Assembly (NCBI GenBank): GCA_026770705.1
Contig: JANJGN010000021.1
Span: forward strand, 67,208,001 to 67,272,000
Direction of reading: 5' to 3'
DNA from: Isurus oxyrinchus
Taxonomy: Eukaryota
DNA length: 64,000 nt
This document shows positions 101 through 63,010 of this stretch, one piece after another. The notes beneath the pieces are model-generated. The model did no database searches. It saw only the letters and a program-made list of their open reading frames with translations, and had not been told where the DNA came from. Each line of letters opens with the position of its first letter. Positions within the stretch are counted from its first letter, which is position 1. The position numbers were made by a program, and so were the translations under genes.

Positions 101-3100
101 ATTGTATGGACATTGTCTGTCAGTAAGTGCAGGAACAGTATCTATCAGTGAGTCCGGAGACAGTGCCTGTCAGTGAATGTGGATGCATGTCTGTGAACGA
201 ATGCGGTGGTGGTGTCTGCAAGTAATTGTGTGGTTAGTGACTGTCAGTGAGTGTGGGGATCATGTCGGTCAGTTAGTAGAGTGTCAGAGTCTGTGAGTGA
301 ATGCAGGGAAAGTGTCTTCCAGTGAGTGCGGTGTCATTCTTTGTCAGTGAGTTTGGGCACAGAGTCTATCAGTGAGTGTGGAGATAGTGTCTCTCAGTGA
401 GTGTTGTGTCAGTGTCTGCCAGTTAGGTTGGGGTCCAAGTCTGCCAGAGAGTGCAGGTTCAGTGTCTGTCAGTGAGCGCAGGTTCAGTGTCAGTGCGTGC
501 GAGAATAGTGTCTGCCAGTGAATGCGGGGACAGAGAAGGTCAGTGAGTGCGGGGATAGTGTCTGTCATTGAGTGCGTGGCTAGTGCCTGTCAGTGAGTGC
601 GGGGATAATGTCTGTCATTGAGTGCGTGGCTAGTGCCTGTCAGTGAGTGCGGGGATTGTGCCTGTCAGTGAATGCGGGGACATTGTCTGCCAGTAAGTGC
701 GGGGGAAGTGTCTGTCAGTGAGTGCAAGGAAATTGCATGTCAGTGAGGAAGGTGTCGGTAAGTGAGTAGGGGGTCAGAGTCTGTCAGTGAGCGCAGGGAT
801 AGTGTTTGTCATTGACTTCACGTACAGTGTCTGTCAATGAATTTGTGGGTGGTGTCTTTCAGTGAGTGCAGGAATAGTGTCTCTCAGTGAGAGCGAGTAT
901 CTTGACTGTCAGTGAATGCGGGAGCAATATCTTCCAGTGACTGTGGGGAAACTGCCTGTTCATGAGTATGGTGACAGTGCCTTTCAGTGAGAGTGGGGAC
1001 AGTTCCCGTCATTTAATGCAGGGACATTACCTGTCATTGTGTGCGGTGACAGTGTCTGTCAGTGAATGCAGGGAGAGAATCTCTCAGTTAGCAGAAAAAC
1101 AGTGCCTATAATTGATTATGGGGACAGTGACTGTCAGTCAATGTGGGACGTTGCATGTCAGCGAGTGTGGGGATGGTGCCTGTTCGTCACTACATGGACG
1201 GTGTCTATCATTTGGTGTGGGGGCAGTTTCTGTCAGCGAGTGCCGTGACAGTGCCTGTCAGCGAGGGTGGGGACAGTGCCTCTCAGTGAGTGCGAGGTCA
1301 GCATCTCTCAGTGACTGTGGGGTGTGGATATATTAGTGAGCAGAGGAACAGGGCCTGTCACTGAGTGTTGGGATAGTGCCTGCGAGTGAGTTCGAGGACT
1401 GTGTTTCTCTGTTAGTGTGAGGAAAATGCCTGGTAGTGAGTGCGGGAACATTATCTGTCAGAGTGTGCGGTGACAGTGTCTGTCAGTGAGTGCAGTGATG
1501 GTGTCCTTCAGTCAGTGTGAGGACAGTGCCAGTAAGTGAGAGCGGGGACAGTGTCTCTAAGTGTGTTCAGGGACAGTGTCTGTCAGTGAGTGCAAGGAAT
1601 GCGGCGGAAGGGAGCCTGTAATTGAGTCTGGGGACAGTGCCTGCAGTCAGTGTTCAGACAGTGCATGTCAGTGAGTGCGGGGACAGCGTTTGTCCATGAG
1701 TGCAGGGACAGTATCTGTCAGTGAGGGTGACGACAGTGCCTGGCCACTGAGTTCAGGGATGCTGACTGTCAGTTAGTAGGGGCTCAGAATCTGCCTGCAA
1801 GTGCAGGGACAGTGTCTGTCATTGTATGTGGTGACAGTGTCTGTCAGTGAATGCTGGGAGAGAATCTCTCAGTTAGCGGAAAAACAGTGCCTATAATTGA
1901 TTGTGGGGACAGTGACTGTCAGTCAGTGTGGGACATTGCATGTCAGCGAGTGTGGGGATGGTGCCTTTCCGTCACTGCATGGACGGTATCTATCATTTGG
2001 TGCAGGGGCAGTTTCTGTCAGCGAGTGCCGTGACAGTGCCTGTCAGCGAGGGTGGGGACAGTGCCTCTCAGTGAGTGCAAGGTCAGCACCTCTCAGTGAC
2101 TGTGGGGAGAGAATATATTAGTAAGCGGAGGAACAGGGCCTGTCACTGAGTGTTGGGATAGTGCCTGCGAGTGAGTTCGAGGACTGTGTTTCTCTGTTAG
2201 TGTGAGGAAAATGCCTGGTAGTGAGTGCGGGAACAGTATCTGTCAGTGTGTGTGGTGACAGTGTCTGTCAGTGAGAGCGGGACAGTGTCTGTCAGTGAGC
2301 GCATTGATGGTGTCCTTCAGTCAGTGTGAGGACAGTGCCAGTAAGTGAGAGCGGGGACAGTGTCTCTAAGTGTGTTCAGGACAGTGTCTGTCAGTAAGTG
2401 CAAGGAATGTGGCGGAAGGGAGCCTGTAATTGAGTCTGGGGACAGTGCCTGTCAGTCAGTGTTCAGACAGTGCATGTCAGTGAGTGCGGGGACAGCGTTT
2501 GTCCGTGAGTGCAGGGACAGTATCTGTCAGTGAGGGTGAGGACAGTGCTTGCCACTGAGTTCAGGGACACTGACTGTCAGTTAGTAGGGGCTCAGAATCT
2601 GTCTGCAAGTGCAGGGACAGTGTCTGTCATTGACTTCATGTAGTGCCTGTCAATGAATTTGGCAACGGTGTCTGTCAGTGAGTTCAGGAACAGTGACACT
2701 CACTGAGTGCGAGTATATTGTCTGTCTGTGACTACGGGGGCAATATCTTCCAGTGAGTTTGGGGAAAGTACATGTCTGTGAGTGTCGGGACATTGCCTGA
2801 CAGTGAGTGTGTGGAGAGGGCCTGTCATTTAGTTGCAGGAACAGTATCTGTCTGCGGCAGTGGCAGTTCTGTCAGTGAAAGTGGGAACATTGTCTCGCAT
2901 TGATTATGGGTAGAGGATATCTCCGTGTGTGGAGAAATAGTGCCTTTAATTGATTGTGGAGACAGTGCCTGTCAGACCGTGTGGGGACAGTGCATGTCAA
3001 TGAGTGCGTTGAAAGTGTCTTTCAGTGAGTGTAGAGACCGTGCCTGTCAGTGACTGCAGGTATAGTATGTGTAAGTTAGTGTGGGGGTAGTGCATGTCAG

Positions 3101-6100
3101 CGAGTGCTGGGATTGGTCCTGTCAGTGAGTGTGAGGACAGTGCCTGTCACTGAGTGCGAGGGCAGCATCTCTCACTGACTGTGGGGAGAGGATCTATCAG
3201 TGAGTGGGGGAACAGTGCCTGTCATTGAGTTTTGGGACAATGCCTGCTAGTGAGTGCGGGGACATTGCCTGTCAGTGAGGGCAGAAAAAGTATCTGTCAG
3301 TGAGTGCGAAGACTGCGTCTGTCAGTGAATGCGGGAACAGGGTCTCTCAGTGACTGCGGGGAGAGGATCTCTCAGTGAGCGGAGGAACGGTGCCTTTAAT
3401 TGAGTCTGCAGAGAGTGCCTGACAGGCAGTTTGGCATCAGTGCATGTCAGTGAGTGCGCGGACAGTGTCTGTCAGTGCATTGAGGGACGTTTCTCAGTGA
3501 GTGCGGCGACTGTGACTGACAGTAAGTGCCGGGGAGATTTCTGTCAATGAGCGCATTAACAGTGTCTGTCACTGAGTGCGAGGACAGCGCCTGTCAGTAA
3601 TTGCAGGGACAGTTTCCGTCAGTGAGTGTGGGGTCATTTCTCTCAGTGAATATGGTGATGGTGTCTACAAGTAAGTGTGTGGTTATTGACTTTCAGTGAG
3701 TGCGGTGTCAGTGTCTGTCAGTAATTGCATGGACAGTGTTTGTTAGTGAGTGTGGGGACGATCTCTGTCAGTGAGTAGGGGGGCACAGTCTGTGGGTGAG
3801 TTCAGGGACAATGTCTGTCAGTGATTATGGGGTCAGGGTTTGTCAGTGAGTGTGGGGTCATTGTCTGCTAGTTAGTGTGGTATCAGAGTCTGCCAGCGAA
3901 TGCGGGATCAGTGTTTGCAGTGAGTGCGGGGTTAATGCCTGTCAGTGAGTGTGGGGACAGTGTCTGTCATTGAGTGCAGGAATATTGTCCGACAGCGAGT
4001 GTGGAGATAGCGTCCATCTATGAGTGCGTGGATAGTGCATGTCAGTGAGATCGGGGATATTGTCTGTCAGTGCCTGCGGGGATACTGTCTGTCAGTGACT
4101 GCGGGGAAAGTGTCTGTCAGTGAGTGCAGGGATAGTGTCTGTCTGTGAGTGCAAAGACAGTTCCTGTCAGTGAGTGCAGGGATGCTGACTGTCAGTGAGT
4201 AGCAGGTCAGAGTCTGTCCACGATCACAGAGACAGAGTCTGTCTTTGACTTCACATATAGTGTCTGTCAATGAATTTGGGGACGGTATCTGACAGTGAGT
4301 GCAGGAACAGTGTCTCTCAGTGAGGTGCGAGTATTTTGTCCATCAGTGACTGCGGGAGCAATATCTTCCAGTGAGTGTGGGGAAAGTACATGTCCGAGAG
4401 AGTCGAGACACTGCCTGTCAGTGAGTTTGTTGACAGTGCCTGCCAGTGAGCGCGTGGGCAGTGCTTGTCATTTAGTGCAGGGACAGTATCTGTCAGTGTG
4501 TGCAGTGAAAGTGTCTGTCAGTGAATGCGGGGAAAGTGTGTCTCAGTGACTGCGAGGAGAGAATCTCCAAGTTAGCGGAAGAAAATTGTCTGTAATTGAA
4601 TGTGGGGACAGTGACTGTCAGTGACTGGGTGCAGTGTCGGTTAGTGAGACTGGGGACAGCGTCTGTCAGTGAGCACAGGAATGTTGTCTGTCAGTCACTG
4701 CGGGGACAATGCCTCTGAGTAATCGCGGGGACAGTGTCTGTGAGTGTGCAGGGACAGTGTCTGACTGTAAGTGCGAGGACAGTGCCTGTTTGTGAGTGTG
4801 TGGACAGTGCCAGTCAGTGAGTGCGGGCACATTGCTTTTCAGTGAGTGTAGGGACAGTGTCTGTCAGTGAGTACAGGGAAAGAGCCTGTTCGTTAGTTCG
4901 AGTACAATGCCTGTCGGTGAGTGCGGGGGCGGTGTCAGTCAGTGAGTAGGGATGTCAGTGCCTGTCAGTGAGTGCAGGGACAGTATCTGTCAGTGAGTGC
5001 GGGGACTGTGTCTGTCAGTGACTACGGGAGAGAATCCCTCACCATGCAGCAGAACAGTGCCTGTAATTGAGTGTGGGGACAGTTCTTTTCAGTCAGTGTC
5101 CGGACAGTGCAAGTCAGTGAGTGCGGGGACAGCGTCTGTCAGTGAGTGCGAGGACAGTGACTGTCAATGAGAGCAGGGATGCTGCCTGTCATTTATTAGG
5201 GGGTCAGAATCTGCACACGAGCGCAGGGACAGTGTCTGTCATCGAATTCATGTACAGTGCCTGTCAATGAATTTGCGGACAGTGTCTGTCAGTGAGTTCA
5301 AGAACAGTGTCTCTCAGTGAGTGCGAGTATATTGTCTGCCTGTGACAGCATGAGCCATATCTTTCAGTGAGTGTGGGGAAAGTACATGTCCGTGAGTGTC
5401 GGGACAGTGGCTGTCAGTGAGTATGTGGAAAGTGCCTGTCACTGAGTGCGTGTGCAATACCTGTCATTTAGTGCAGGGACAGTATCTGTCAGTGTGGGAG
5501 TGACAGTTTCTGTCAATGAATACGGGAACGGTGTCTCGCGTTGACTGCGGGTAGAGGATTTCTCAGTGCGCGGAGAAATAGTGCCTGTAATTTAATGTGG
5601 AGACCATGCCTGTCAGACAGTTTTGGGACAGTGCATGTCAGTGACTGCACTGACACTGTCTTTCAGTGAGTGTAGGGACCGTGCCTGTCAGTGACAGCAG
5701 GGACAGTATGTGTCACTTAGTGTGGGGGTAGTGTATGTCAGCGAGTGCCGGGATTGCTCCTGTCAGTGAGTGTGGAGACAGTGCCTGTCACTGAGTGCGA
5801 GGGCAGGATCTCTTATGACTGGGGATAGAGGATCTACCATTGAGTGGGGGAACTAGTGCCTGTCATTGAGTGTGGAGTCAATGGCTGCTAGTGTGTGCGG
5901 GGACAGTGCATGTCAGTGAGTGTGGGTGCCTATCTGTCAGTGAATGCGGTGATGGTGCCTGCAAGTAATTGTGTGGTTAGTGATTGTCAGTGAGTGTGGG
6001 GTCAGTGTCTGCCAGTAAGTGCGGGGACATTGTCAGTGAGTGTGGAGTTCATGTCAATCAGTTAGCAGAGTGTCAGAGTCTTTGGGTGAATGCAGGGAAA

Positions 6101-9100
6101 GTGTCTTCCATTGAGTGCTGTGTCATTGTCTGTCAGTGAATTTGGGCACAGTGTCTGTCAGTGAGTGTGTAGAAAGTGTCTATCAGTGAGTGTGGTGTCA
6201 GTGCTTGCCAGTTAGGTTGGGGTCTGAGTCTGCCAGCGAATGGGGGTTCAGTGTCTGTCAGTGAGCGCTGTTTCATTGACTGTCAGTGTGTGCAGGAATA
6301 GTGTCTGCCAGTGAATGCTGTGATAGAGACTGTCAGTGAGTCCGGGGATAGTGTCTGTCAGTGGGTGCGGGGATTGTGCCTCTCAGTGAGTGTGGGGACG
6401 GTGTCGGTAAGTGAGTAGGGGGTCGGAGTCTGTCAGTGAGCGCAGGGACAGTGTTTGTCATTGACTTCATGTACAATGTCTGTCAATGAATTTGTGGGTG
6501 GTGTCTTTCAATGAGTGCAGGAATAGTGTCTCTCAGTGAGTGCGAGTATCTTGACTGTCAGTGAATGCGGGAGCAATGCCTTCCAGTGACTGTGGGGAAA
6601 CTGTCTGTTCATGAGTATGGTGACAGTGCCTGTCAGTGAGAGTGGGGACAGCTCCTGACAATGTGTGCTGGAGCCTTGTCTGTCATTTAATGCAGGGACA
6701 GTACCTGTCATTGTGTGTGGTGACAGTGTCTGTCAGTGAATGCAGGGAGAGAATCTCTCAGTTAGCGGAAGAACAGTACCTATAATTGACTTTGGGGACA
6801 GTGACTGTCAGTGAGTGCGAGGTTAGCATCTCTCAGTCACTGCGGGGAGAGGATATATTAGTGAACGGAGGAACAGAGCCTGTCACTGAGTGTTGGGATA
6901 GTGCCTGCTAGTGAGTCTGAGGATAGTGTCTGTCTATTAGTGTGGGGATAGTGCTTGTCAGTTAGTGCAGTGACAGTATCTGTCAGTGTGTGTGGTGACA
7001 GTGTCTGTTAGTGAAGGCGGGACAGTGTCTGTCAGTGAGTGCTGGGATGGTGTCTTTCAGTCAGAGTGAGGACAGTGCCAATAAGTGAGATCGGGGAAAG
7101 TGTCAGACAGTGTGTTCAGGGACAGTGTCTGTCAGTGAGGGCGAGGACTGTGGCTGTCAGACAGTGTGTGGTAATTGTGTGTAAATGAGTGCGGGGGCAG
7201 GGCCTGACAGTGAGTTTTTGGAAAGTGCAAGGCAGTGAGTGCGTGGACAGTGTCTATCAGTGAGTGCAGGAACATTGCTTTTCAGTGAGTGACATTGTCT
7301 GTTACTAAGTTTGGGGCCATTTCTCTCAGTGAATGTGGTGATGGTGTCTGCAAGTAAGTGTGTGCTTAGTGACTTTCAGTAAGTGCGGGGACAGTGCCTG
7401 TCCGTGTGTGTGGGGACGATGTCTGTCAGTGAGTAAGGTGTCAGAGTCTGTTGGTGCAGTGAGCGCAGGGGCAGCATCTGTCAGTGAGTGGCGAGATTGC
7501 TCCTGTCAGTGAGTTAGGGGACAGTCTCTGCTAGGGAGTGCAGGGACAGTGCCTTTCCGTGAGTGTGGGGACAGTGAATATCTGTGTGTTCTGGGACAGT
7601 GTCTGTCAGTGGGCGTGGGGACAGTATCTGTCAGTGAGTGTGGGGATCATGTTGGTCAGTTAGTAGAGTGTCAGAGTCTGTGAATGCAGGGGAAGTGTCT
7701 TCCAGTGAGTGCGGTGTCATTGTCTGTCAGTCAGTTTGGGTACAGTGTCTGTCAGTGACTGTGGAGATGGTGTCTATCAGTGAGTGTGGTGTCAGTGTCT
7801 GCCAGTTAGCTTAGGGTCCGAGTCTGGCAGACAGTGCGGGTTCAGTGTCTGTCAGTGAGTGAGGGTTCAGTATCTGTCAGTGCGTGCGGGAATAGTGTCT
7901 GCCAGCGAATGCGGGATAGAGACTGTCAGTGAGGGCGGAGATAGTGTCTATCATTGAGTGCGTGGCTTGTGTCTGTCAGTGAGTGCGGGGATTGTGCCTG
8001 CCAGTGAGTGCTGGGACATTGTCTGTCAGTGAATGCGGGGACATTGCCTGTCAGTGACTACGGAAGAGAATCTCTCACTGTGTGATGGAACAGAGCCTGT
8101 AATTGAGTGCGGGGACAGTGTCTGTCAGTGAGTGCAGGGACACTATTTGTTAGTGAATGCGAGCACAGTGCCTGACAGTGAGTTCAGGGACGCTGTCTTT
8201 CAGTTAGTAGGGGGTGAGAATCTATCCGCGAGCACCAGGACAAAGTCTGTCATCGACTTCATGTACAGTGCCTGTCAATGAATTTGGGGACGGTGTCCGT
8301 CAGTGAGTTCAGTAACAGTGACACTCAGTGACTGCGAGTATATTGTCTGGCTGTGACTGCGGGAGCAATATCTTCCAGTGAGTGTGGAGAAAGTACATGT
8401 CTGTGAGTGTCGGGACATTGCCTGACAGTGAGTGTGTGGACAGGGCCTGTTCAGGGAGTGCGTGGGCAGTGCCTGTCATTTAGTTGCAGGAACAGTATAT
8501 GTCAGTGTGATAGTGACAGTGTCTGTCAGTGAAAGCGGGAACAGAGTCTCGCATTGATTGTGGGTAGAGGATATCTCAGTGCGTGGAGGAACAGTGCCTG
8601 TAATTGATTGTGGAGACAGTGCCTGTCAGTGAGTGCAGGGACCGTGCCTGTCAGTGACTGCAGCGACAGTATGTGTCAGTGAGTGCGGGGGTAGTGTATG
8701 TCAGCGAGTGCTGGGATTGGTCCTGTCAGTGAGTGTGAGGACAGTGCCTGTTACTGAGTGCGAGGGCAGCATCTCTCACTGACTGTGGGGAGAGGATATA
8801 TCAGTGAGCGGAGGAACAGTGCATTTAATTGAGTGTTGGTAGAGTGCCTGTCAGGCAGTTTGGGGTCAGTGCACGTCAGTGAGTGCGGGGACAGTGTCTG
8901 TCAGTGCATTGAAGGAGTTTTCTCAGCGAATGTGGCAACTGTGACTGACAATAAGTGCCGGGGAGGTTTCTGTCAATGAGTGCATTAACAGTGCCTGTCA
9001 CTGAGTGCGAGGACAGCGCCTGTCAGTGATTACAGGGACAGTTTCCGTCAGTAAGTGAGGGGGCATTTCTCTTAGTGAATGTGGTGATGGTGTCTGCAAT

Positions 9101-10510
9101 TAAGTGTGTGGTTAGTGACTTTCGGTGAGTGTGGGGTCAGTGTCTGTCAGTAAGTGCATGGACAGTGTCTGTCAGTGAGTGAGGTGATGATGTCTTTCAG
9201 TAAGTAGTGGGGCAGAGTCTGTGGGTGAGTTCAGGGACAGTGTCTGTTAGTGAGTACGGGGTCATTGTCTGTCAGTGAGTGTGGGGTTAGTGTCTGCTAG
9301 TTATTGTGGGGTCAGAGTCTGCCAGCGAATGCAGGGTCAGTGTCTGCAGTGAGTGCAGGGACAGTGTCTGTCAGTGAGTGCGGAGATAGTTCTGTCATTG
9401 AGTGCAGGAATATTGTCCGACAGCGAGTGTGGAGATAGTGTCCGTCTGTGAGCGCGGGGATAGTGCATGTCAGTGAGATCAGGGATATTGTCTGTCAGTG
9501 CATGCGGGAATACTGTCTGTCAGTGACTGCAGGGAAAGTGACTGTCAATGAGTGTGGGTTTAGTGCCTGTCAGTATGTGCAGGAATGCTGTCTGTCAGTG
9601 TGTATGGGGTCAGAGTCTGTCCGCGATGGCAGGGACAGAGTCTATCTTTGACTTCACATACAGTGTCTGTCAATGAATTTGGGGACGGTATCTAACAGTG
9701 AGTGCAGGAACAGTGTCTCTCAGGGTGTGTGAGTACTTTGTCAATGACTGCGGGAGCAATATCTTCCAGTGAGTGTGGGGAAAGTACATGTCCATTAGAG
9801 TCGAGACATTGCCTGTCAGTGGCTTTATTGACAGTGCCTGCCAGTGAGTGCGTGGGCAGTGCCTGTCATTTAGTGCAGGGACAGTATCTGTCAGTGTGTG
9901 CAGTGAAAGTGTCTGTCAGTGAATGCGGGGAAAGTGTGTCTCAGTGACTGCGAGGAGAAAATCTCCAAGTTAGCGGAAGAACATTGCTTGTAAGTGAATA
10001 AGGGGACAGTGACTGTCAGTGACTGTGGGTGCAGTGTCGGTTAGTGAGACTGGGGACAGCGTCTATCAGTGAGCGCAGGAAAGTTTTCTGTCAGTCACTG
10101 CGGGGACAGTGCTTATGAGTAGTTGCAGGGACATGTGTCCATGAGTGTGCAGGGACAGTGTCTGACAGTAAGTGCGAGGACAGTGCCTGTCTGTGAGCGT
10201 GTGGACAGTGCCTGTAAATGAGGACTGGGGCAGGGCCTGTCAATGAGTGTTTGGAAAGTGCCTGTCAGTGAGTGTGGCGACATGGCTTTTCAGTGAGTGT
10301 GGGGTCAGTATCTGTCAGTGAGTACAGGGAAAATGCCTTTTAGTTAGTTCGAGTACAGTGCCTGTCAATGAGTGCGGGGGCTGTGTCGGTCAGTGAGTAG
10401 GGGGGTCAGTGCCTGTCAGTGAATGCAGGGACAGTATCATTCAGTGAATGCGGCGACTGTGTCTGTCAGTGACTACGAGAGAGGATCCCTCACCATGCAG
10501 CAGAACTGTG

Positions 10511-12668
10511 ATAAAAACAAAAAACTGCAGATGCTGGAAATCCAAAACAAAAACAGAATTACCTGGAAAACTTAGCAGGTCTGGCAGCATCAGCAGAGAA
10601 GAAAAGAGTTGATGTTTGTAGTCCTCATGATCCTTCAACAGAACTAGGTGAATCCGAGGTTGGGCGACTATCAGGTTGGAAGCTATGGGAGGAAGATCCC
10701 CAGAGGAGTGACAGTCCTGGAAACAATGGCTTGATGTTCAGTGGTGGGGTCATGGTCCAGGGGGAGGTAGGAGGAAGTGTCTGCGAGTTGACACTCAGCC
10801 TCCGCGAGGTAGAGGTCAGTGCACCAGACAACAACAGCACCACCCTTGTCAGCGGGTTTGATGACGATGTCAGGGTTGGACCTGAGAGAATGGAGTGCAG
10901 TAAGTTCAGAGAGAGAGAGATTAGAATGGGTGAGAGGAGCAGAGAAATTGAGACGACTAATGTCGCGCCGACAGTTCTCAATGAAAAGATCAAGAGAAGG
11001 TAAGAATCCAGAGGAAGGGGTCCAGGTGGAGGGAGAATATTGAAGGTGGGTAAAAGGATCTGTTGAACGGGGAGAGGACTCCTGCCCAAAGAAGTGAGCC
11101 CGGAGACAAAGACGTCAGAAGAAGCGTTCAACATCGTGCCAAGCCCGAAATTCATTGAGGTGAGTGCGTAAGGGTATGAAACTAAGTCCTTTTCTGAGCA
11201 CTGAACGTTCAGCATTGGAGAGGGGGTACAGTGAATACAAGGCTGGGGCTGGAATTGGGTGGGGACGGAGGGACAGGCAGGGGTGGAGGGTCCTAGATGG
11301 GTGTTGGTATCAATGAGTTGTTGAAGCTTGCGTTCCTTAGCACTTGAGAGAAAGAGAAAAAGTTTCTTGTTGAGGCGTCGGATGAGACGAAGAATAAAAT
11401 GAAACTGGGGGCACGCGCAGCTTTGAAAAAGGGTACGGTGGTGCTGCTGGAGGGAGAGGTCGAGTGTGTTCATATGGCGGCGCATGGCACTAAGTGTGGA
11501 TCTCAGAATGTGATGGGAACAGAAGTCTGAGAAACGTTTTATGTCCCGGAGATACCTGTAATCCTGGGTTGATTCGAAACATGAGGGGTGGAATTTCAGT
11601 TGAAATCCACGTGGGGTAAGTCGGAGACAGAGACAGTCACTGAGAAAGGATATATGACTGTGAAAGGGGGTTTTAGTAAACACCTTGTCAAACACCAGGA
11701 GAGAAATGGAAAGCAATGATGGTGAGCAAGGCAAAAGAGAGATACGGAAATCCTGTCACAGAGACAAACAGAACTTCTTCAAGGTAGACATTTCTTGAAG
11801 AGCAGTGACAGTCAATTAAACACAGAGATAAAAACAAAAAACTGCAGATGCTGGAAATCCAAAAAAAAAACAGAATTACCTGGAAAAACTCAGCAGGTCT
11901 GGCAGCATCGGCGGAGAAGAAAAGAGTTGACGTTTTGCGTCTTCATGACCCTCCAACAGAACTAGGTGAATCCAAGGAAGGGGTGAAATATAAGTTGGTT
12001 TAAGATGTGTGTGTGTGTTGGGGGGTGGTTGGGTGGGGGGAGAGAAGTGGACGGGGTTGGTGTAGTTGTAGGGACAAGCAAGCAGTGATAGAAGCAGATC
12101 ATCAAAAGATGTCACAGACAGCAGAACAAAAGAACACATAGGTGTCAAGACCTCCCTCCTCCATCCCCACCCCCTTTCTGTTTCTTCCCCCTTCCTTTTG
12201 TTGTTTCCAATAAATTATATAGATTTTTCTTTTCCACCTATTTCCATTATTTTTAAATATTTTTAAATCTTTTATGCTCCCCCCACCCCCACTAGAGCTA
12301 TACCTTGAGTGCCCTACCATCCATTCTTAATTAGCACATTTGTTTAGATAATATCACCAACTTTAACACCTATGTGTTCTTTTGTTCTGTTGTCTGTGAT
12401 ATCTTTTGATGATCTGCTTCTATTACTGCTTGTTTGTCCCTACAACCACACCAACCCCCTCCACTTCTCTCCCCCCACCCAAACCACCTCCCCCCCCATC
12501 CCCACACACACACACATACCTTAAACCAGCTTAAATTTCAACCCTTTCTTGGATTCACTCAAGTTCTGTCAAAGGGTCATGAGGACTCAAAACGTCAACT
12601 CTTTTCTTCTCCGCCGATGCTGCCAGACCTGCTGAGTTTTTCCAGGTAATTCTGTTTCTGTTTTTTGA
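10511..12668 (-). mobile_element. Penelope-like retroelement (family A): pLTR + 5' part of ORF + partial pLTR on minus strand, with an inverted pLTR (12150-12668, + strand)
   Basis: Minus-strand pLTR copies at 10511-10660 and 11829-12150, inverted copy at 12150-12668; PLE N-terminal protein motifs in between; tandem plus inverted pLTRs are typical of PLEs. Confidence 0.88.
10660..11791 (-). pseudogene. Disrupted 5' portion of Penelope-like ORF (N-terminal region up to start of RT)
   Basis: ATG at 11791 (MSTLKKFCLSL*QDFRISLLPCSPS..., stop probably from CGA>TGA); HISFLSDCLCLRLTPRGFQLKF motif; after a frameshift near 11230 another frame reads ..KGLSFIP..SNPDIVIKPADKGGAVVVW (~10820-10880), the PLE pre-RT ADKG motif; truncated before the catalytic RT motifs. 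Confidence 0.85.
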
Positions 12669-13394
12669 ATGCTTGATCAGTGTCTGTTGTGACAACGGGG
12701 ACAGTGTGTGTTTTGAGTGCAGGCAGTGTCTGTCAGTGAATGAGTGGACAGTGCCTGGAATAGTTATTGTGTGTCTGCTAGTCAGTGTGCCATCAGTGTA
12801 TGTGGTGAATGCTGGTACAGTGTCTGTCAGTGAGTGTGGGGGCATGCATGTGAGTGAATGCGGTGATGGTGTCTGTCAATGCGTGCAGGAACAGTGTCTG
12901 TCAGCGAGTGTGTGGACCCTGTCTGTCAGTGATTTGGGGGGCCATGTCAGTCAGTGAGTGGAAGGCCGTGTCTGTCAGTGAGTGGGGGGGTGGGGGGGGG
13001 TACCATGTCTGTCAGTGAGTGTGGAGACACTGTCTCTCAGTGACTGTGGGGAGAGGATCTATTAGTGAGTGTGGGGACAGTGCCTATCAGTGAATGCACT
13101 GACAATACCTGCCAGTGAGTGCGGTGACAGTGCCTGTTAGTGAGTGTGCGGACAGTGCCTATCAGTGAGTGCAGGAACAGCGCCTGTCAGTCAATACCGG
13201 GACAGTGCCTGCCAGTGAGTGTGAGGAGAGTTCCTGTCAGTAATGTGAGGAAAGTGTCTGACTGAATGCGGGTTCAGTGTTGGTCAGTTGCTCCAGCGGG
13301 AGATTCTGTCAGTGAGTGGGATGACGGTGTCTCTCAGTGAGTGTGAGGACGATGTCTATCAGTGTGTGAGTAATCTTAATTTAAAAAAAAAGGG

Positions 13395-19487: not shown

Positions 19488-19747
19488 CCTTCATAATCAC
19501 TCCATACTAACTTGTGTTCCACAGAACACAACAGACAGCCCCTCCATGCTTAAGAGTTCTGTAATCTCTCTCTATTCCTCTTTCTATTCCTCTTGACAAA
19601 GTGGTAAATTTGGAATTTTCTCATATAATACTCAATCTGCCAAATATTTGCCCACTTATTTAACCTTTCTGAATTCCTTAATTCACAAATCATTTTCAAG
19701 AATACCTTTGAATCAGCAGGATATTTAGCATGCATGTATTATTTCCC

Positions 19748-19987
19748 AAAAACAAAAACAGAATTGCCTGGAAAAACTCAGCAGGTCTGGCAGCATCAGT
19801 GGAGAAGAAAAGAGTTGACGTTTAGATTGATCCTTAGATTCACTCAGTTCTGTTGAAGGGTCATGAGGACTCGAAACGTCAACTCTTTTCTTCTCCACCG
19901 ATGATGCCAGACCTGTTGAGTTTTTCCAGGTAATTCTGTTTTTGTTTTGGATTTCCAGCATCCGCAGTTTTTTGTTTTTATCTCTTT
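19748..19987 (+). mobile_element. Foldback PLE-derived mini-element (family A pLTR with inverted 5' arm), 14-bp TSD
   Basis: atgtattatttccc at 19734-19747 and 19988-20001; left arm 19748-19823 is the reverse complement of ~19874-19949. Confidence 0.88.
19846..19884 (+). ncRNA. Minimal type I hammerhead-ribozyme-like motif (variant core) in PLE pLTR
   Basis: agtt|CTGTTGA-A|GGGTC-atgag-GACTC|GAA|ACGT|C|aact: stem I agtt/aact, 5-bp stem II, palindromic ACGU stem III, GUC cleavage triplet (predicted cut after 19880); core position 6 is U instead of A. Confidence 0.6.
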
Positions 19988-20159
19988 ATGTATTATTTCC
20001 CGTTCTCCAAATTATTGATATGAATTGCAAACAACTGAGGCACCAACACTAATCTCTGTGGCACTCCAGTCGTCACATCTTGCCAATAGGAAGATGGCCC
20101 ATGTTTGCGTTTTCTGTATTTTTTTCCTATTAGCTTAACTATCCTCTGTATATCACGGG

Positions 20160-41243: not shown

Positions 41244-41489
41244 CTGCATATATAATTACAGAATTAAATGCGAAAGTTGGTTTCAGATGTTAAAAAAAGG
41301 CAGCATCGCTACGGACCACAAACTGCCCTAGTCTATATATGCCGGCAGTTTGTGATCAGTAATGGTGCCACCTTGAGATATAACTCAGGTAATCTTTTGT
41401 ATTAACTGGTGCAATTCACACAATCACCAGAACTTAATTCCTTAATGTATAATTGATTAGAGGAAGGACCAACATGATCAGAGTAAAAC

Positions 41490-41710
41490 AAGAACAGAAA
41501 TACCTGGAAAAACTCAGCAGGTCTGGCAGCATCGGCGGAGAAGAACAAAGTTGACGTTTCGAGTCCTCATGACCGTAGTTCTGTTGAAGTGTCATGAGGA
41601 CTCGAAACGTCAGCTTTGTTCTTCCCCGCCGATGCTGCCAGACGTGCTGAGTTTTTCCAGGTAATTCTGATTTTGCTTTTGATTTCCAGCATCAGAAGTT
41701 TTTTGTTTTT
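41490..41710 (+). mobile_element. Foldback PLE-derived mini-element (family A) with 16-bp TSD and hammerhead-like motif at 41577-41615
   Basis: atgatcagagtaaaac at 41474-41489 and 41711-41726; arms ~41495-41573 and ~41591-41669 are inverted. Confidence 0.9.
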
Positions 41711-43230
41711 ATGATCAGAGTAAAACTTGAGAAAAATTCATTAATAGCATTAAAGACACAAACTTAAGAAGCAAATGTAGTAGGGACTTTTTTTCAATTT
41801 GGTAGTAAATAGGAATTAAGCGTAAACATCAGATATAATTTGTTCTTCACTGATATTGTTTCCCCATGTACAGGGTAGTTATGTTATAAAGGATGCTGTT
41901 ACAAGCTCAAAGATAATATGAATTTCTCGGAATCAAATTAATCTGTTTGAATTTTAAATTTTTGCATGTCAATCTCTATTCATATGCTGTCTGCATCTTC
42001 CAAAACATTAAATACAATTATATTCACTACCAGCGAGGTCAATATCTCACAAAACTGCTTAAGATTAGATTACCGACAATTATCTCGTTATCCAATTGCA
42101 AATTACTTTGGGACAACAATATGGTTGCGGCTGCAGACAACAAATATAATAATGGGATACACATAATGTCAAAGTGCAGCGTATAATAACTTCGTTTTAC
42201 GTGATGACTTAATTCACTCGGAGTTTACTGTCCTGTCAGCAAGGCGCATGCAAAATGACGTTATTGCTTTCCGCTCATTGGCGCCACAATGTGCGCGCAC
42301 AGACCTGTGGTGGCTGCAGCAACATTGCGTTGTCAATAGTTAGTGTTACAAAAAACAGAAGATGCAGATGTGACCTCTTGCCCAAGCGCCCATCAAACAG
42401 TCTGTTGCCTGATGGAAAGTATATTTGCTTCCAACCTGACTGAAAACACCGCTTTCAGTGAGATAGCTTGAAACATTTTAGGTTAAAATGTTAACACTCT
42501 GGGACGCCAGGGCTATTTCAGTCTCCTGTTCTCAACGTGCTCTGCTTAACTTTCAGATGTCCCTGAAAGAGTTCTACAATTACCAGTTGCACAGATTCCC
42601 AGAACATCGCTCAGACTAATTCCCCAGGAATACGTTATTTTCTGGGAAACCCAGGTCCTAAAAAGAAAAAACTTAGTATTTATTAATGCAGTATATGTTG
42701 TTTCTCAGCACATCCTATTATGCAGACAGCAGTAATATAGGTTAAGGTGTTCCTGAGCCTAAACAGTCACACAGAAGCTGTTTCCGTGGAATGACGGTTT
42801 AATTCAGTGAGAGCATGGAGAACCCGGACTGTTGAGAGTTCCTCACTGGATCTTTCATTCTTTCGGTCTGCAGCATCAGACCTCATCGAGGCAGGATACT
42901 ACCTTAGGCTCCTAGTCTGTTTCACACATGGATGATGGCTGTCACAGCCATCATCACGACATATTCCTCCAAGGCAATCACAGATTTCTAAAAATCCAAA
43001 ATGAACAGGGAATTGAGTGATGGTCCTGTGCATAGAGGGAGTGGCCCAATCATAAAATTTAATAGTGAGTCAGTTGGTATGAATGGTTCTGACACTGCAC
43101 TACAGAGGAACCCTCTTTTGTTTTAAATAAATCCCGCCTTCTCCCCCATCCCTACTGAAGGGTGGTTTCCCCAGCGCAGACACTATGGCACATGTTCTCT
43201 GAGACCAGAGGCACAGGAAAGAAAGGTCAA

Positions 43231-51644: not shown

Positions 51645-52654
51645 TGTCAAGAAAACAATGAATTGTCAATTTTTTCTTCTGGTATTAACCCTGGCATATT
51701 TTCTTATGTACCAGAAGCCAGACAGTAATTGGATTAAGAGCAAGGGTCTAAAGTCACAGTAACAACGTCTTTTATATATTAATGAACCAAAAGGAACTTC
51801 AATCAGAGCTTTACATAAAGGAATAACAGGAACACATTTGAATTGAGTTCAGTTCTATTGAAGGGTCATGAGGACTCAAAACGTCAGCTCTTTTCTTCTC
51901 CACCGATGCTGCCAGAACTGCTGAGTTTTTCCAGGTAATTTTGTTTTTGTTTTGAATTGCGTTATTTTAGTTCAAAGGGGATATAGGCAGGTTGTAAAAA
52001 GGTGTAAGGCAATAAGGTAAAGTTAGGGTAAGTTAATGTTTACAAGTCTAAGAGCGAAAGTAAAGAACGATTTAATCAACTCCGGGAAGAAAGCATTCTG
52101 ACAAGACTGGTTAAGTTAATAGAGAGATCAAATGCATGTAAGGAAATATTGAGTCCCATATGAGAATGTAGCTGCTTAGACATCCCAGATGATAGCAGCA
52201 CAGCTCGTCAGAACTCCCAGAAGGCAGATTGAACAAGGTCAGACTGAACGAAGCAGTTGCTGTCAGCCTTAGAGGACACTCCAAGGAAAAACTCTGTGTG
52301 GTAATTTTGTGGGACTTCCATAAAGTCTAAAATCTATAAGGATAGTTGCTCAACAGAAAATGGAAAGGTTAGCTCTTAGGGTAGTTAAGATTCATGGAAC
52401 TGTTTCAACATACTGTTTACTGTGTGTAACCATCCTGTGTATTTAAGTGTAATTGCCTTTTATTTGTGATTGTTTATTTATTTAATAATCATTTACTTTA
52501 CTATAAAATCATCACAACTACTCGAAGGCGTCATTTTCTGATTTTTAGAACTGCTCCTCACAAGATACAACTTGCAAAAAGTGCTTTCCTAGCTGTTTCA
52601 TTTTCTCTCTGGGATTTGAGCAGCTCAGCATTTACCTTCTACCATGCCATAACA
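51645..52654 (+). mobile_element. Possible solo LTR (contains a family A PLE insert)
   Basis: TGTCAAG...CATAACA ends, flanks caag/cagg (one mismatch), AT-rich polyA-like region near 52480; boundaries uncertain. Confidence 0.35.
51850..51950 (+). mobile_element. Family A PLE mini-insert with 13-bp TSD (1 mismatch)
   Basis: tttgaattgagtt 51837-51849 / tttgaattgcgtt 51951-51963; begins at the hammerhead-like motif. Confidence 0.8.
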
Positions 52655-56385: not shown

Positions 56386-56399
56386 GTTGGGGAGTGCCC

Positions 56400-57320
56400 A
56401 TTTGCCTCCTCCAACCTCACCCTCCAAAGGCCCAATTACTCCTTTCAGGTGATGCAGTGATTCACTAGCACCCACTTCAAATTAGTCAACTGCATCTGCT
56501 GCTCCCAATGTGGTCTCTTCTACATCGGAGAGTCCAAATGCAATCTGGGTGGCCGCTTTTAGGAACACGTCCAGTCTGGCTGCAAGCATGACCCAAAGCT
56601 TCCAGTCACTTGCCATTTCAACACGTCATCTTACTCTCATGCCCACATGCCCGTCCTTGGCCAGCTGCAATGTTCCACTAAAGCCCAATGCAAACTGGAA
56701 GAACAGCACCTCATCTTCCGTTTAGACACCTTCCAGCCTCCAGGACTTAACATTGAGTTCAGCAACTTCAGACCATGAACTGTGTTCTCCAAACTCACCA
56801 TCCTTTTTAACTGCCTTTTGTTCCACATTCATTTTTATTTTTTATCCACTTACTTAATTTTTACTCATTTATCCGTGGTATTCTCCCCTTTTTTATCCCA
56901 TTTTCTATCCTTCTTCCCCACCACGGTCCCTTCCCCCCACCCCATCCTCCACAGGGCAATCTGCTGCTTCTTCCATGTTGTTCTTTCATACAATGCTATC
57001 TTGTTCTGCTCTAATCACTTTCTGATTTCTTACCTTAATGCCACTTTTCACACCTTGTGTAGCACTAACCACGACCATCACCAGTCCCTTTGCACTTCAG
57101 TTCATGACATTTCTTGTCAATCTTTCCTTTGCCCACCAATCTCTGGCCTTCTATCCAGTTCCACCTGCCCCACCCTCTTAAACAATATGCATATATTCAC
57201 ATTTCCATTCCCCTTCAGCTCTGAAGAGAGGTGATATAGACTCGAAACTTTAACTCTGTTTCTCTCTCCACAGATGCTGCTAGACCTGATGGGTTTTTCC
57301 AGCACTTTCTGTTTTTTTTC
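56400..57320 (+). mobile_element. Penelope-like element (family B): GIY-YIG endonuclease remnant plus 3' pLTR
   Basis: ..SFQV.Q*FTST..LVNCICCSQCGLFYIGESKCNLGGRF.EH.. and KLEEQHLIFRLDTFQPPGLNIEF; pLTR ends gatgctgctagacctgatgggtttttccagcactttctg. Confidence 0.88.
57217..57255 (+). ncRNA. Degenerate minimal hammerhead motif with canonical CUGAAGA core (family B pLTR)
   Basis: agct-CTGAAGA-gaggtgatatagactc-GAAAC-ttt-aact; stems partly mutated. Confidence 0.45.
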
Positions 57321-57829
57321 TGGGGAGCGTTCCATCTGGCTTCTCTGCCCAAGCCTGAACATTGTCCAGATTTTCTTTCTTTCCATCAACAACTATTTCA
57401 TAGGCTGAGGAGTTATGAATGTAACTGAACACTGCAATCAACAGTAAATGCCCCACTTTCCGACTTTGTGATAAAATGAAAAATGTTGATGAAGGTGTTT
57501 TCCCTGGAATCTGACCTGAGAAACCCTTACATTGCTGCCCCTAGCTGAGACAATTGACTCCAACAAACTGAACCAATTTCATTTCTTCTAATTATTAGTG
57601 GAGTCAGTGGAGTGATTTCTCTCTGATCACATAGGTTTAAACTTTATTGGAGATCTTTGAAGGCACTGACGGTAAAACTTTACCTTGATGTCAAAGGCTG
57701 TCTCTCTCATCCCAGCCCTGGAATGTGGCACGAAAGCTGTAATGATGTCCAGAGCCAATTACTTTTGGAATGCATTAAATTTAACATCGTTGTGCCGGTT
57801 ATTCCTGGATAAATGCCATTTGTCCGACT

Positions 57830-60894: not shown

Positions 60895-61038
60895 TGAGTT
60901 CTGTGGAAGGGTCATGGGACTCAAAATGTTAACTCTTTTCTTCTCCACCGATGCTGCCAGACCTGCTCAGTTTTTCCATGTAATTCTGTTTTTGTTCTGG
61001 ATTTCCAGCATCCGCAGTTTTTTGTTTTTATTTTTATT
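60895..61038 (+). mobile_element. Family A PLE mini-insert with 11-bp TSD
   Basis: aagaagttacg at 60884-60894 and 61039-61049; starts at the hammerhead-like motif. Confidence 0.85.
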
Positions 61039-62329: not shown

Positions 62330-63010
62330 ATTTCCGACAATGGCCATCTCCAATTTAGAGAGGTTCTAACCATCTCTCCTTTACATCCAATGGCATTACC
62401 ATCGCCTAATTCTCCTCTATCAACATCATGGGAATTAGCATTGACAAGAAACTGAACTGGACTAGCCTTATACATACTGTGGCAACAAGGGACAAGGCTG
62501 AAACACTGCAGCGACTTTCCAAAGTATGTCCACCATTTATGTTTCAAAAGTCAGCAGTGTGCTCCGTCTACAAGATCCACTGCTCAGCAAGGCTCCTTAG
62601 GCCCCACCTTCTACAACCACAATCACTAAGATTTGGAAGGACAAAGGCACCAGACAAGTTCTGTCGAAGGGTCATGAGGACTCGAAACATCAACTCTTTT
62701 CTTCTCCGCCGATGCTGCCAGACCTGCTGAGTTTTTCCAGGTAATTCTGTTTTTGTTTAGGCACTTGGGAGTACCATCACCTAGACATTCCCCTCCAAGC
62801 CACTCAACATCTTGACTCGGAAATATGTGGCCGCTCCTCCACTATCTCTGGGCAAAATTCCTGGATCTCCCTTCCTAACAGCACTGTGGGTTCATCTACG
62901 CCACAGGGGCTGTAACAGTTCAAAGATGCAGATTGCCACCATCTTCTCAAGGGCAACTAGGGATAGGCAGTGAATTCTGTCTCAGCCAGCGAACCCCATA
63001 TCCCATGAAT
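62330..63010 (+). mobile_element. Non-LTR retroelement 3' end (CR1-group, clade not assigned), interrupted by a PLE insert
   Basis: INIMGISIDKKLNWTSLI..VATR RT C-terminal remnant; 3' UTR ttcccctccaagccactcaacatcttgactcggaaatat.. Confidence 0.65.
62656..62758 (+). mobile_element. Family A PLE mini-insert retaining the probable ancestral core CTGTCGA
   Basis: agttctgtcgaagggtcatgaggactcgaaacatcaactc...; possible short TSD aggcac. Confidence 0.8.

Follow-up and report, generated by a model that had tools for sequence, protein, structure and literature searches.

Is a hammerhead ribozyme with a fixed change at a near-universal core base still a ribozyme? The question is raised by one short motif in a 64,000-nucleotide stretch of Isurus oxyrinchus DNA (the window), which has the layout of the minimal type I hammerheads of Penelope-like elements (PLEs) except for a U at core position 6. 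At stake is either a family of 10^5 copies that spreads with a dead ribozyme or a position 6 that is freer than textbook mutagenesis says. What hammerheads do in EN+ Penelope elements is unclear according to PMC8557442, and direct testing that we can cite is limited to one in vitro system (PMC11167929). The shark genome offers a natural experiment in a single species, with A6 ancestors, an ordered ladder of U6 subfamilies with intact open reading frames (ORFs), C6 and U4G+U6 side branches, and thousands of copies. Given below are the order of the subfamilies, the side branches with C6 and with U4G, and counts of insertion junctions.

The motif is built from stem I (AGUU/AACU), the core CUGUUGA followed by one extra A, stem II (GGGUC/GACUC), GAAA, a palindromic ACGU as stem III, and a GUC site, with the predicted cut between 19880 and 19881. 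It forms the forward arm of a two-arm insertion at 19749-19985 that is flanked by a 14-bp target-site duplication (TSD). The coordinates of the insertion and of the other copies in the window are collected in the table.

Features of the insertion and related copies in the window (strand as +, -, or. for the palindromic insertion)
Feature	Positions	Strand	Remarks
Damaged U6 motif copy and tail	10514..10645	-	
Same PLE family: damaged U6 motif (11925-11963), leader, N-terminal part of the ORF (broken) with the DKG motif	10653..11963	-	92% identity to unit positions 1-1345
pLTR; its U6 motif (12562-12600) is damaged in G8 and G12	12149..12664	+	
Target-site duplication, 14 bp, left copy	19734..19747	+	Read from sequence
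Second arm, inverted, 5'-truncated (unit positions 26-103)	19749..19826	-	
pLTR remnant 5' of motif, diagnostic of subfamily S06	19831..19845	+	
Minimal type I hammerhead, U at core position 6 (base 19853)	19846..19884	+	Matches PLE minimal hammerhead consensus (PMC4209133 Fig S3) except at position 6
Conserved tail/5' leader 3' of predicted cut, within insertion	19885..19985	+	92% identity to L081 unit positions 1-142
Target-site duplication, 14 bp, right copy	19988..20001	+	Read from sequence
Palindromic two-arm insertion, U6 motif at 41577-41615	41484..41712	.	
Short U6 copy, G5 and G12 damaged	51851..51956	+	
Older sister-subfamily copy, canonical CUGAAGA core	57217..57323	+	In-window control; absent from the list of the original prediction
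Short damaged U6 copy	60897..61031	+	
Short young copy, core CUGUCGA	62657..62761	+	

The original prediction identified the motif as the minimal hammerhead of a Penelope pseudo-LTR (pLTR), and this holds. As in the PLE hammerheads of Cervera and de la Pena (2014, PMC4209133), it lies in the pLTR and has a short stem I, an extra base after A9 (between 9 and 10.1), the pair G10.1-C11.1, a palindromic stem III (ACGU) fit for dimer formation, and an NUH site. It differs from them by the U at position 6; the sole core variant described in the consulted part of that paper is U3-A8. The invariant core CUGANGA is absent from the young motif and present only in older sister subfamilies: a looser canonical-core pattern gave 7,610 matches, of which the first 100 were almost all from such subfamilies. 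Judged by these sequences, the motif is a descendant of the PLE minimal hammerhead that has left the defining core behind. Descriptor searches that require CUGANGA thus miss the largest hammerhead family seen in the I. oxyrinchus genome.

That the motif is a look-alike hairpin or a piece of promoter sequence, and no hammerhead, is scarcely credible. An Rfam scan of the window gave no hammerhead family match at an E value of 5 or below, the 39-mer folds no better than its own shuffles (z, -0.55), and the stem covariation sought at the outset did not appear: none of nine pairs showed a two-sided change among 20 distinct sequences, which had one-sided changes only and come from a close lineage (mean column identity, 91%). 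These results would suit a look-alike. Against it stand the direct sister subfamilies, in which the canonical core is complete and sits in the same frame, together with the published consensus, and it is on these rather than on folding energy that the identity is based. In addition, stems I and II are paired in 93.9% of cells across the same 20 sequences, compared with 46% or less in slid controls, and exact matching over the genome returned 93,495 copies of the U6 motif and none of a reversed control pattern. A minimal hammerhead descriptor matched nothing in shuffled DNA (5 x 264 kb). The descriptor found no unrelated hammerhead family in 1.14 Mb of examined DNA, in a scan insensitive enough that no intact old A6 copy was recovered either.

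Folding predictions say little because A6 versions misfold in them as well. A U6-A13 alternative hairpin was discarded, its probability being 0.0 in all 15 folds; the competing pairing predicted instead is UGUU/AACG. In the subfamily with the oldest canonical core (S00; e.g., L116:1497-1535 and window 57217-57255), stem I contains a C-A mismatch that later subfamilies repaired to U-A, and even the A6 ancestors were therefore probably weak ribozymes.

The host element is represented at locus L081 by 3.35-kb tandem units, in which an intact 918-aa ORF lies between two U6 motifs. The 918-aa protein matches RVT_1 (E value of 7e-8, above the cutoff) and GIY-YIG (E value of 9e-4; 20 bits, just below the cutoff of 22.6). 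This protein (P0001) has a C-X4-C-X2-C motif near residue 790, which fits the CX2-5CxxC linker between the reverse transcriptase (RT) and endonuclease domains, a feature of Neptune and Nematis (PMC8557442). The element is an endonuclease-bearing PLE with a linker of the Neptune/Nematis type. Like the elements of that type described by Craig et al. (2021, PMC8557442), it has a single ORF with DKG, RT, linker, and C-terminal GIY-YIG, and both tandem and inverted pLTRs. Its noncanonical core sets it apart, as canonical hammerheads are given in the consulted part of that source as universal outside Naiad/Chlamys. The hallmarks of PLE insertion are present, namely tandem units forming pseudo-LTRs, inverted 5'-truncated arms, the tail, and the TSD. 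A TATA-like box lies approximately 30 nt 5' of stem I in the subfamily majorities.

Within the window, eight copies had been described as retaining the core with U6 throughout. T is indeed found at position 6 in all eight, but the core is otherwise intact in the copy at 19846 only; the remaining seven are damaged in G5, G8, G12, stem II, or stem III. The canonical copy at 57217-57323 is accompanied by the 3' end of its ORF at 56395-56771.

Position 6 was then counted over the 4.98-Gb genome with exact patterns that differ solely at this position and cover U, C, and A. U was found in 93,495 matches, C in 2,419, and A in 163. U thus prevails over A genome-wide and flanks the intact 918-aa ORF, in line with the earlier proposal that the substitution was carried by the active master element. 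No A at a frequency of at least 5% was seen at position 6 in aligned contigs from four sequencing runs under three organism labels, and the sole variant in the 5' half of the core in these contigs was C7>T. On the old background, a pattern with a pyrimidine at position 6 gave 6,723 matches, mostly CUGUUGA.

The order of events was read from a ladder of subfamilies built on 191 copies with full upstream sequence, from which 30 loci chosen as A6 revertants were omitted. Divergence from the subfamily majority falls from 9.6% for CUGAAGA to 8.1 and 7.3% for CUGAUGA, 6.6 and 5.9% for CUGUUGA on the old stem, 5.9 and 4.1% for CUGUUGA with loop AUGAG and GUC, and 2.8 and 1.9% for CUGUCGA. The A6 range of 7.3 to 9.6% covers three groups with at least nine copies each; a fourth A6 group of three copies is at 4.2%. 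The value for S06 (2.0%) is biased by best-hit sampling, and that for S04 (12%) belongs to a mixed bin. Among the sampled subfamilies, all that are younger than those with A6 have a non-A base at position 6. As read from this ladder, the order is CUGAUGA, then CUGUUGA by a single A-to-U step on the old background, then CUGUCGA, with C7 coming later. A tree of 51 ORF 3' ends fits one origin of U6 with weak support (84/78); in it, one copy with A6 (L126) falls within the old U6 copies, and the U6 row L145 is long-branched.

Since U6 arose as CUGUUGA on the old background, the core at 19846 is not a product of CpG decay from CTGTCGA, as had been supposed. Among the first 100 of 581 matches to its subfamily, S06, 86 read TTG, which gives CUGUUGA as the master state, followed by TCG and CTG (5 each), TGG (3), and TTA (1); neither TCA nor A6 occurred.

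Side branches show what else the family has propagated. The 163 A6 revertants are at the level of the transversion background (approximately 190 for U4A) and lie on mixed backgrounds, which is why no A6 revertant branch is seen. C6, with 15 times as many matches as A6, forms a branch with a haplotype common to 5 of 19 loci. A non-U base at position 4 was found in 1,187 matches, the first 100 of which comprised 64 U4G, 16 U4A, and 20 U4C, and extrapolation from these 100 gives approximately 760 copies with both U4G and U6 genome-wide. Of 22 U4G loci examined, 10 have full upstream sequence and 6 of these share one haplotype. G4 is present in both arms of six of seven informative paired insertions, L382 being discordant. 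The common haplotype and the two-arm G4 therefore indicate that a master with two core mutations made copies. The G4 branch stayed small, at <1% of the family, and other lineages are younger. Three palindromic G4 insertions (L383, L392, and L393) have an identical central junction, and the palindrome itself may have been remobilized as a unit.

The 5' junctions of insertions bear on the state of the template. In a survey of 197 tail-anchored copies, to which each palindrome contributed both of its arms and in which the tail served to assign truncated copies, 26 of 83 young U6, 16 of 71 A6, and 1 of 43 old U6 copies began at the front of stem I, between offsets -8 and 0. Starts within 2 nt of the cut site numbered 2 of 83, 3 of 71, and 0 of 43, respectively. 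Because starts fall at the front of stem I and rarely at the cut site, we infer that the templates were mostly uncut; transcription presumably starts at stem I. This pattern is shared by A6 copies, so that cleavage is not the normal route, and it says nothing of U6 abolishing cleavage. Genome-wide, 407 apparent cut-site junctions were counted beside 92,682 exact tails; two control sites gave 231 and 277. Of 30 cut-site junctions that were inspected, many were fold-back microhomology joins or deletions. A6 cut-site junctions numbered 313 genome-wide, a count without a denominator, and many of 30 inspected were substitutions or deletions. The 5' junctions thus give no clear peak as a cleavage footprint, only a weak excess that does not separate A6 from U6. 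An extra G next to the 5' junction, apparently cap-derived and seen in 18 of 23 cases at offset -4, proved to be an artifact of comparison against pooled subfamilies.

Has the motif been under selection since A6U? The majorities of old and young U6 subfamilies differ at 9 of 89 fourfold sites (10%) and 39 of 312 UTR sites (12%). Given this divergence, the probability that the 14-base core remains unchanged is about 0.2, which is not significant alone. A stronger signal comes from the later changes of the master. All five to six are compatible with a hammerhead (position 7, A-U to G.U in stem II, two to three in loop II, and U17C), and with a compatible fraction of 0.26 to 0.33, the probability of 5 of 5 is 0.001 to 0.004, where tolerated sites were defined by the analyst from hammerhead rules. 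The confinement of master changes to such sites suggests continuing constraint. Two of them, G.U at 10.2 and C17, are present also in an A6 subfamily, and the TATA-like block and the tail are conserved as well as the motif in the subfamily majorities. Strong purifying selection had also been considered from the 62 to 66% BLAST identity of old and young pLTRs. It was dropped, as that value is driven by indels and the majorities differ by the 10 to 12% given above only.

On balance, we lean toward a U6 hammerhead that is strongly attenuated or silent, with cleavage dispensable for copying. The original prediction had left the choice between a tolerated variant and a dead ribozyme open; the lack of an A6 reversion branch, the spread of C6 and U4G+U6, and the mostly uncut templates tilt it toward attenuation and dispensability. 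U6 is fixed in intact, tandem, full-length elements that expanded, and double-mutant copies were made. As a mechanism, a PLE master lineage would have fixed A6U and then expanded. Its RNA would begin near the first nucleotide of stem I, which would make the motif the first 39 nt of the transcript, and the RT would start approximately 70 to 110 nt 3' of the predicted cut and copy through the uncut motif. The motif would likely be kept mainly as a structured 5' leader for protein binding or as a start region, possibly with residual protein-assisted cleavage.

In Anolis, hammerhead mutants of a PLE leave in vitro insertion unimpaired, and cleavage by the hammerhead requires the protein of the element (Frangieh et al. 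2024, PMC11167929); by analogy with the latter, rescue of U6 by a protein in vivo is conceivable. That element, Poseidon PAc, resembles the shark element in its internal RT initiation 3' of the hammerhead, its uncut RNA template, and its tail signature. It differs in that its core is canonical, its mutants are engineered and were assayed in vitro, and its ORF starts inside the hammerhead, while in I. oxyrinchus a natural mutant has become fixed and the start of the ORF is approximately 170 nt downstream. Naiads proliferate without a canonical hammerhead (PMC8557442). The nearest natural parallel is the phage Bcep176 A6C hammerhead, a position 6 pyrimidine with low activity in Mg2+ that works in Mn2+ (PMC3088659, PMC7151607). 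It is a single phage locus with C as described there, whereas U (and C) is fixed here in approximately 10^5 copies of a retroelement whose A6 ancestor can be traced. A rate for A6U itself was not found in the literature examined, nor was a natural A6U hammerhead reported in literature searches whose coverage excluded the main survey of PLE hammerhead variants.

Possible, although we regard it with some doubt, is a hammerhead that was tuned down and is still selected. U6 would then slow cleavage and spare the RT template, and a low level of protein-assisted or Mn2+-favored cleavage would remain necessary, such as for trimming read-through RNA or restraining expression. The main lineage fixed no disruptive change, its five to six changes all being at tolerated sites, the changes at 10.2 and 17 recur in an A6 subfamily, the G4 branch never took over, and natural A6C retains low activity and works with Mn2+. 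All of this would be expected of a motif whose cleavage still counts. Yet the old and young masters are so similar that an intact 14-base core has a fair likelihood by chance, two-sided covariation is absent, the neighboring TATA-like block and tail are equally conserved, and a double-mutant branch spread. Full compensation, in which position 6 is effectively free and cleavage normal, either because of the minimal dimeric arrangement with its additional A behind A9 and its lack of loop-loop contacts or because a PLE protein is bound, appears quite improbable. It would account for U and C at position 6 in spreading branches, but pairwise mutagenesis (PMC9901934) found low activity in CUGA-turn mutants and, in the consulted part of that study, no rescue by second mutations except a C3-G8 swap. 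The PLE representatives consulted in PMC4209133 Fig S3 are all A6, albeit under a descriptor that demanded A6; U6 adds the competing UGUU/AACG pairing, and in prediction the dimer fold then lies 10.3 rather than 7.3 kcal/mol away; and no cleavage footprint was seen. It is unlikely, in our judgment, that the lineage is decommissioning its ribozyme. Such a lineage would have replaced its canonical ancestors after A6U, tolerated C6 and U4G, gained an upstream AUG in loop II, and assembled step by step, upstream, a copy of the 3' half of the ribozyme with a predicted blocking pairing to the 5' half, the loss of cleavage being selected as protection of the RT template and the motif surviving as a noncatalytic 5' leader.

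Several minor features were recorded along the way. An AUG appeared in loop II of the young U6 lineage (window 19863-19865 and all young copies); it opens an 18-codon upstream ORF, which an uncut leader would keep. The approximately 20 nt 5' of stem I changed fast, in steps that brought them close to a copy of the 3' half of the ribozyme itself (L081:6030-6062; S06-S10), and for several young subfamilies pairing of this segment with stem I and the 5' half of the core is predicted. Either templated conversion or selection for a blocking hairpin may explain the copy.

A splice-donor-like site lies in the tail at window 19921-19930, and old subfamilies have an acceptor-like pyrimidine tract whose end coincides with the opening two bases of stem I, a layout shared with D. 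virilis Penelope. No spliced (donor-to-acceptor) join was present among the loci examined, and TSDs abut the 5' end in several short, noninverted copies; a splice-acceptor origin of the 5' junction cluster was therefore rejected, while an intron within the pLTR is still conceivable. Two metagenome-labeled sequencing runs contain approximately 0.3 of the element's sampled words, which does not amount to evidence of habitat or transfer. Finally, the window holds a degenerate 25-bp tandem array of approximately 416 copies with 61% matches (109-10472 and 12670-13368), bounded on both sides by PLE copies.
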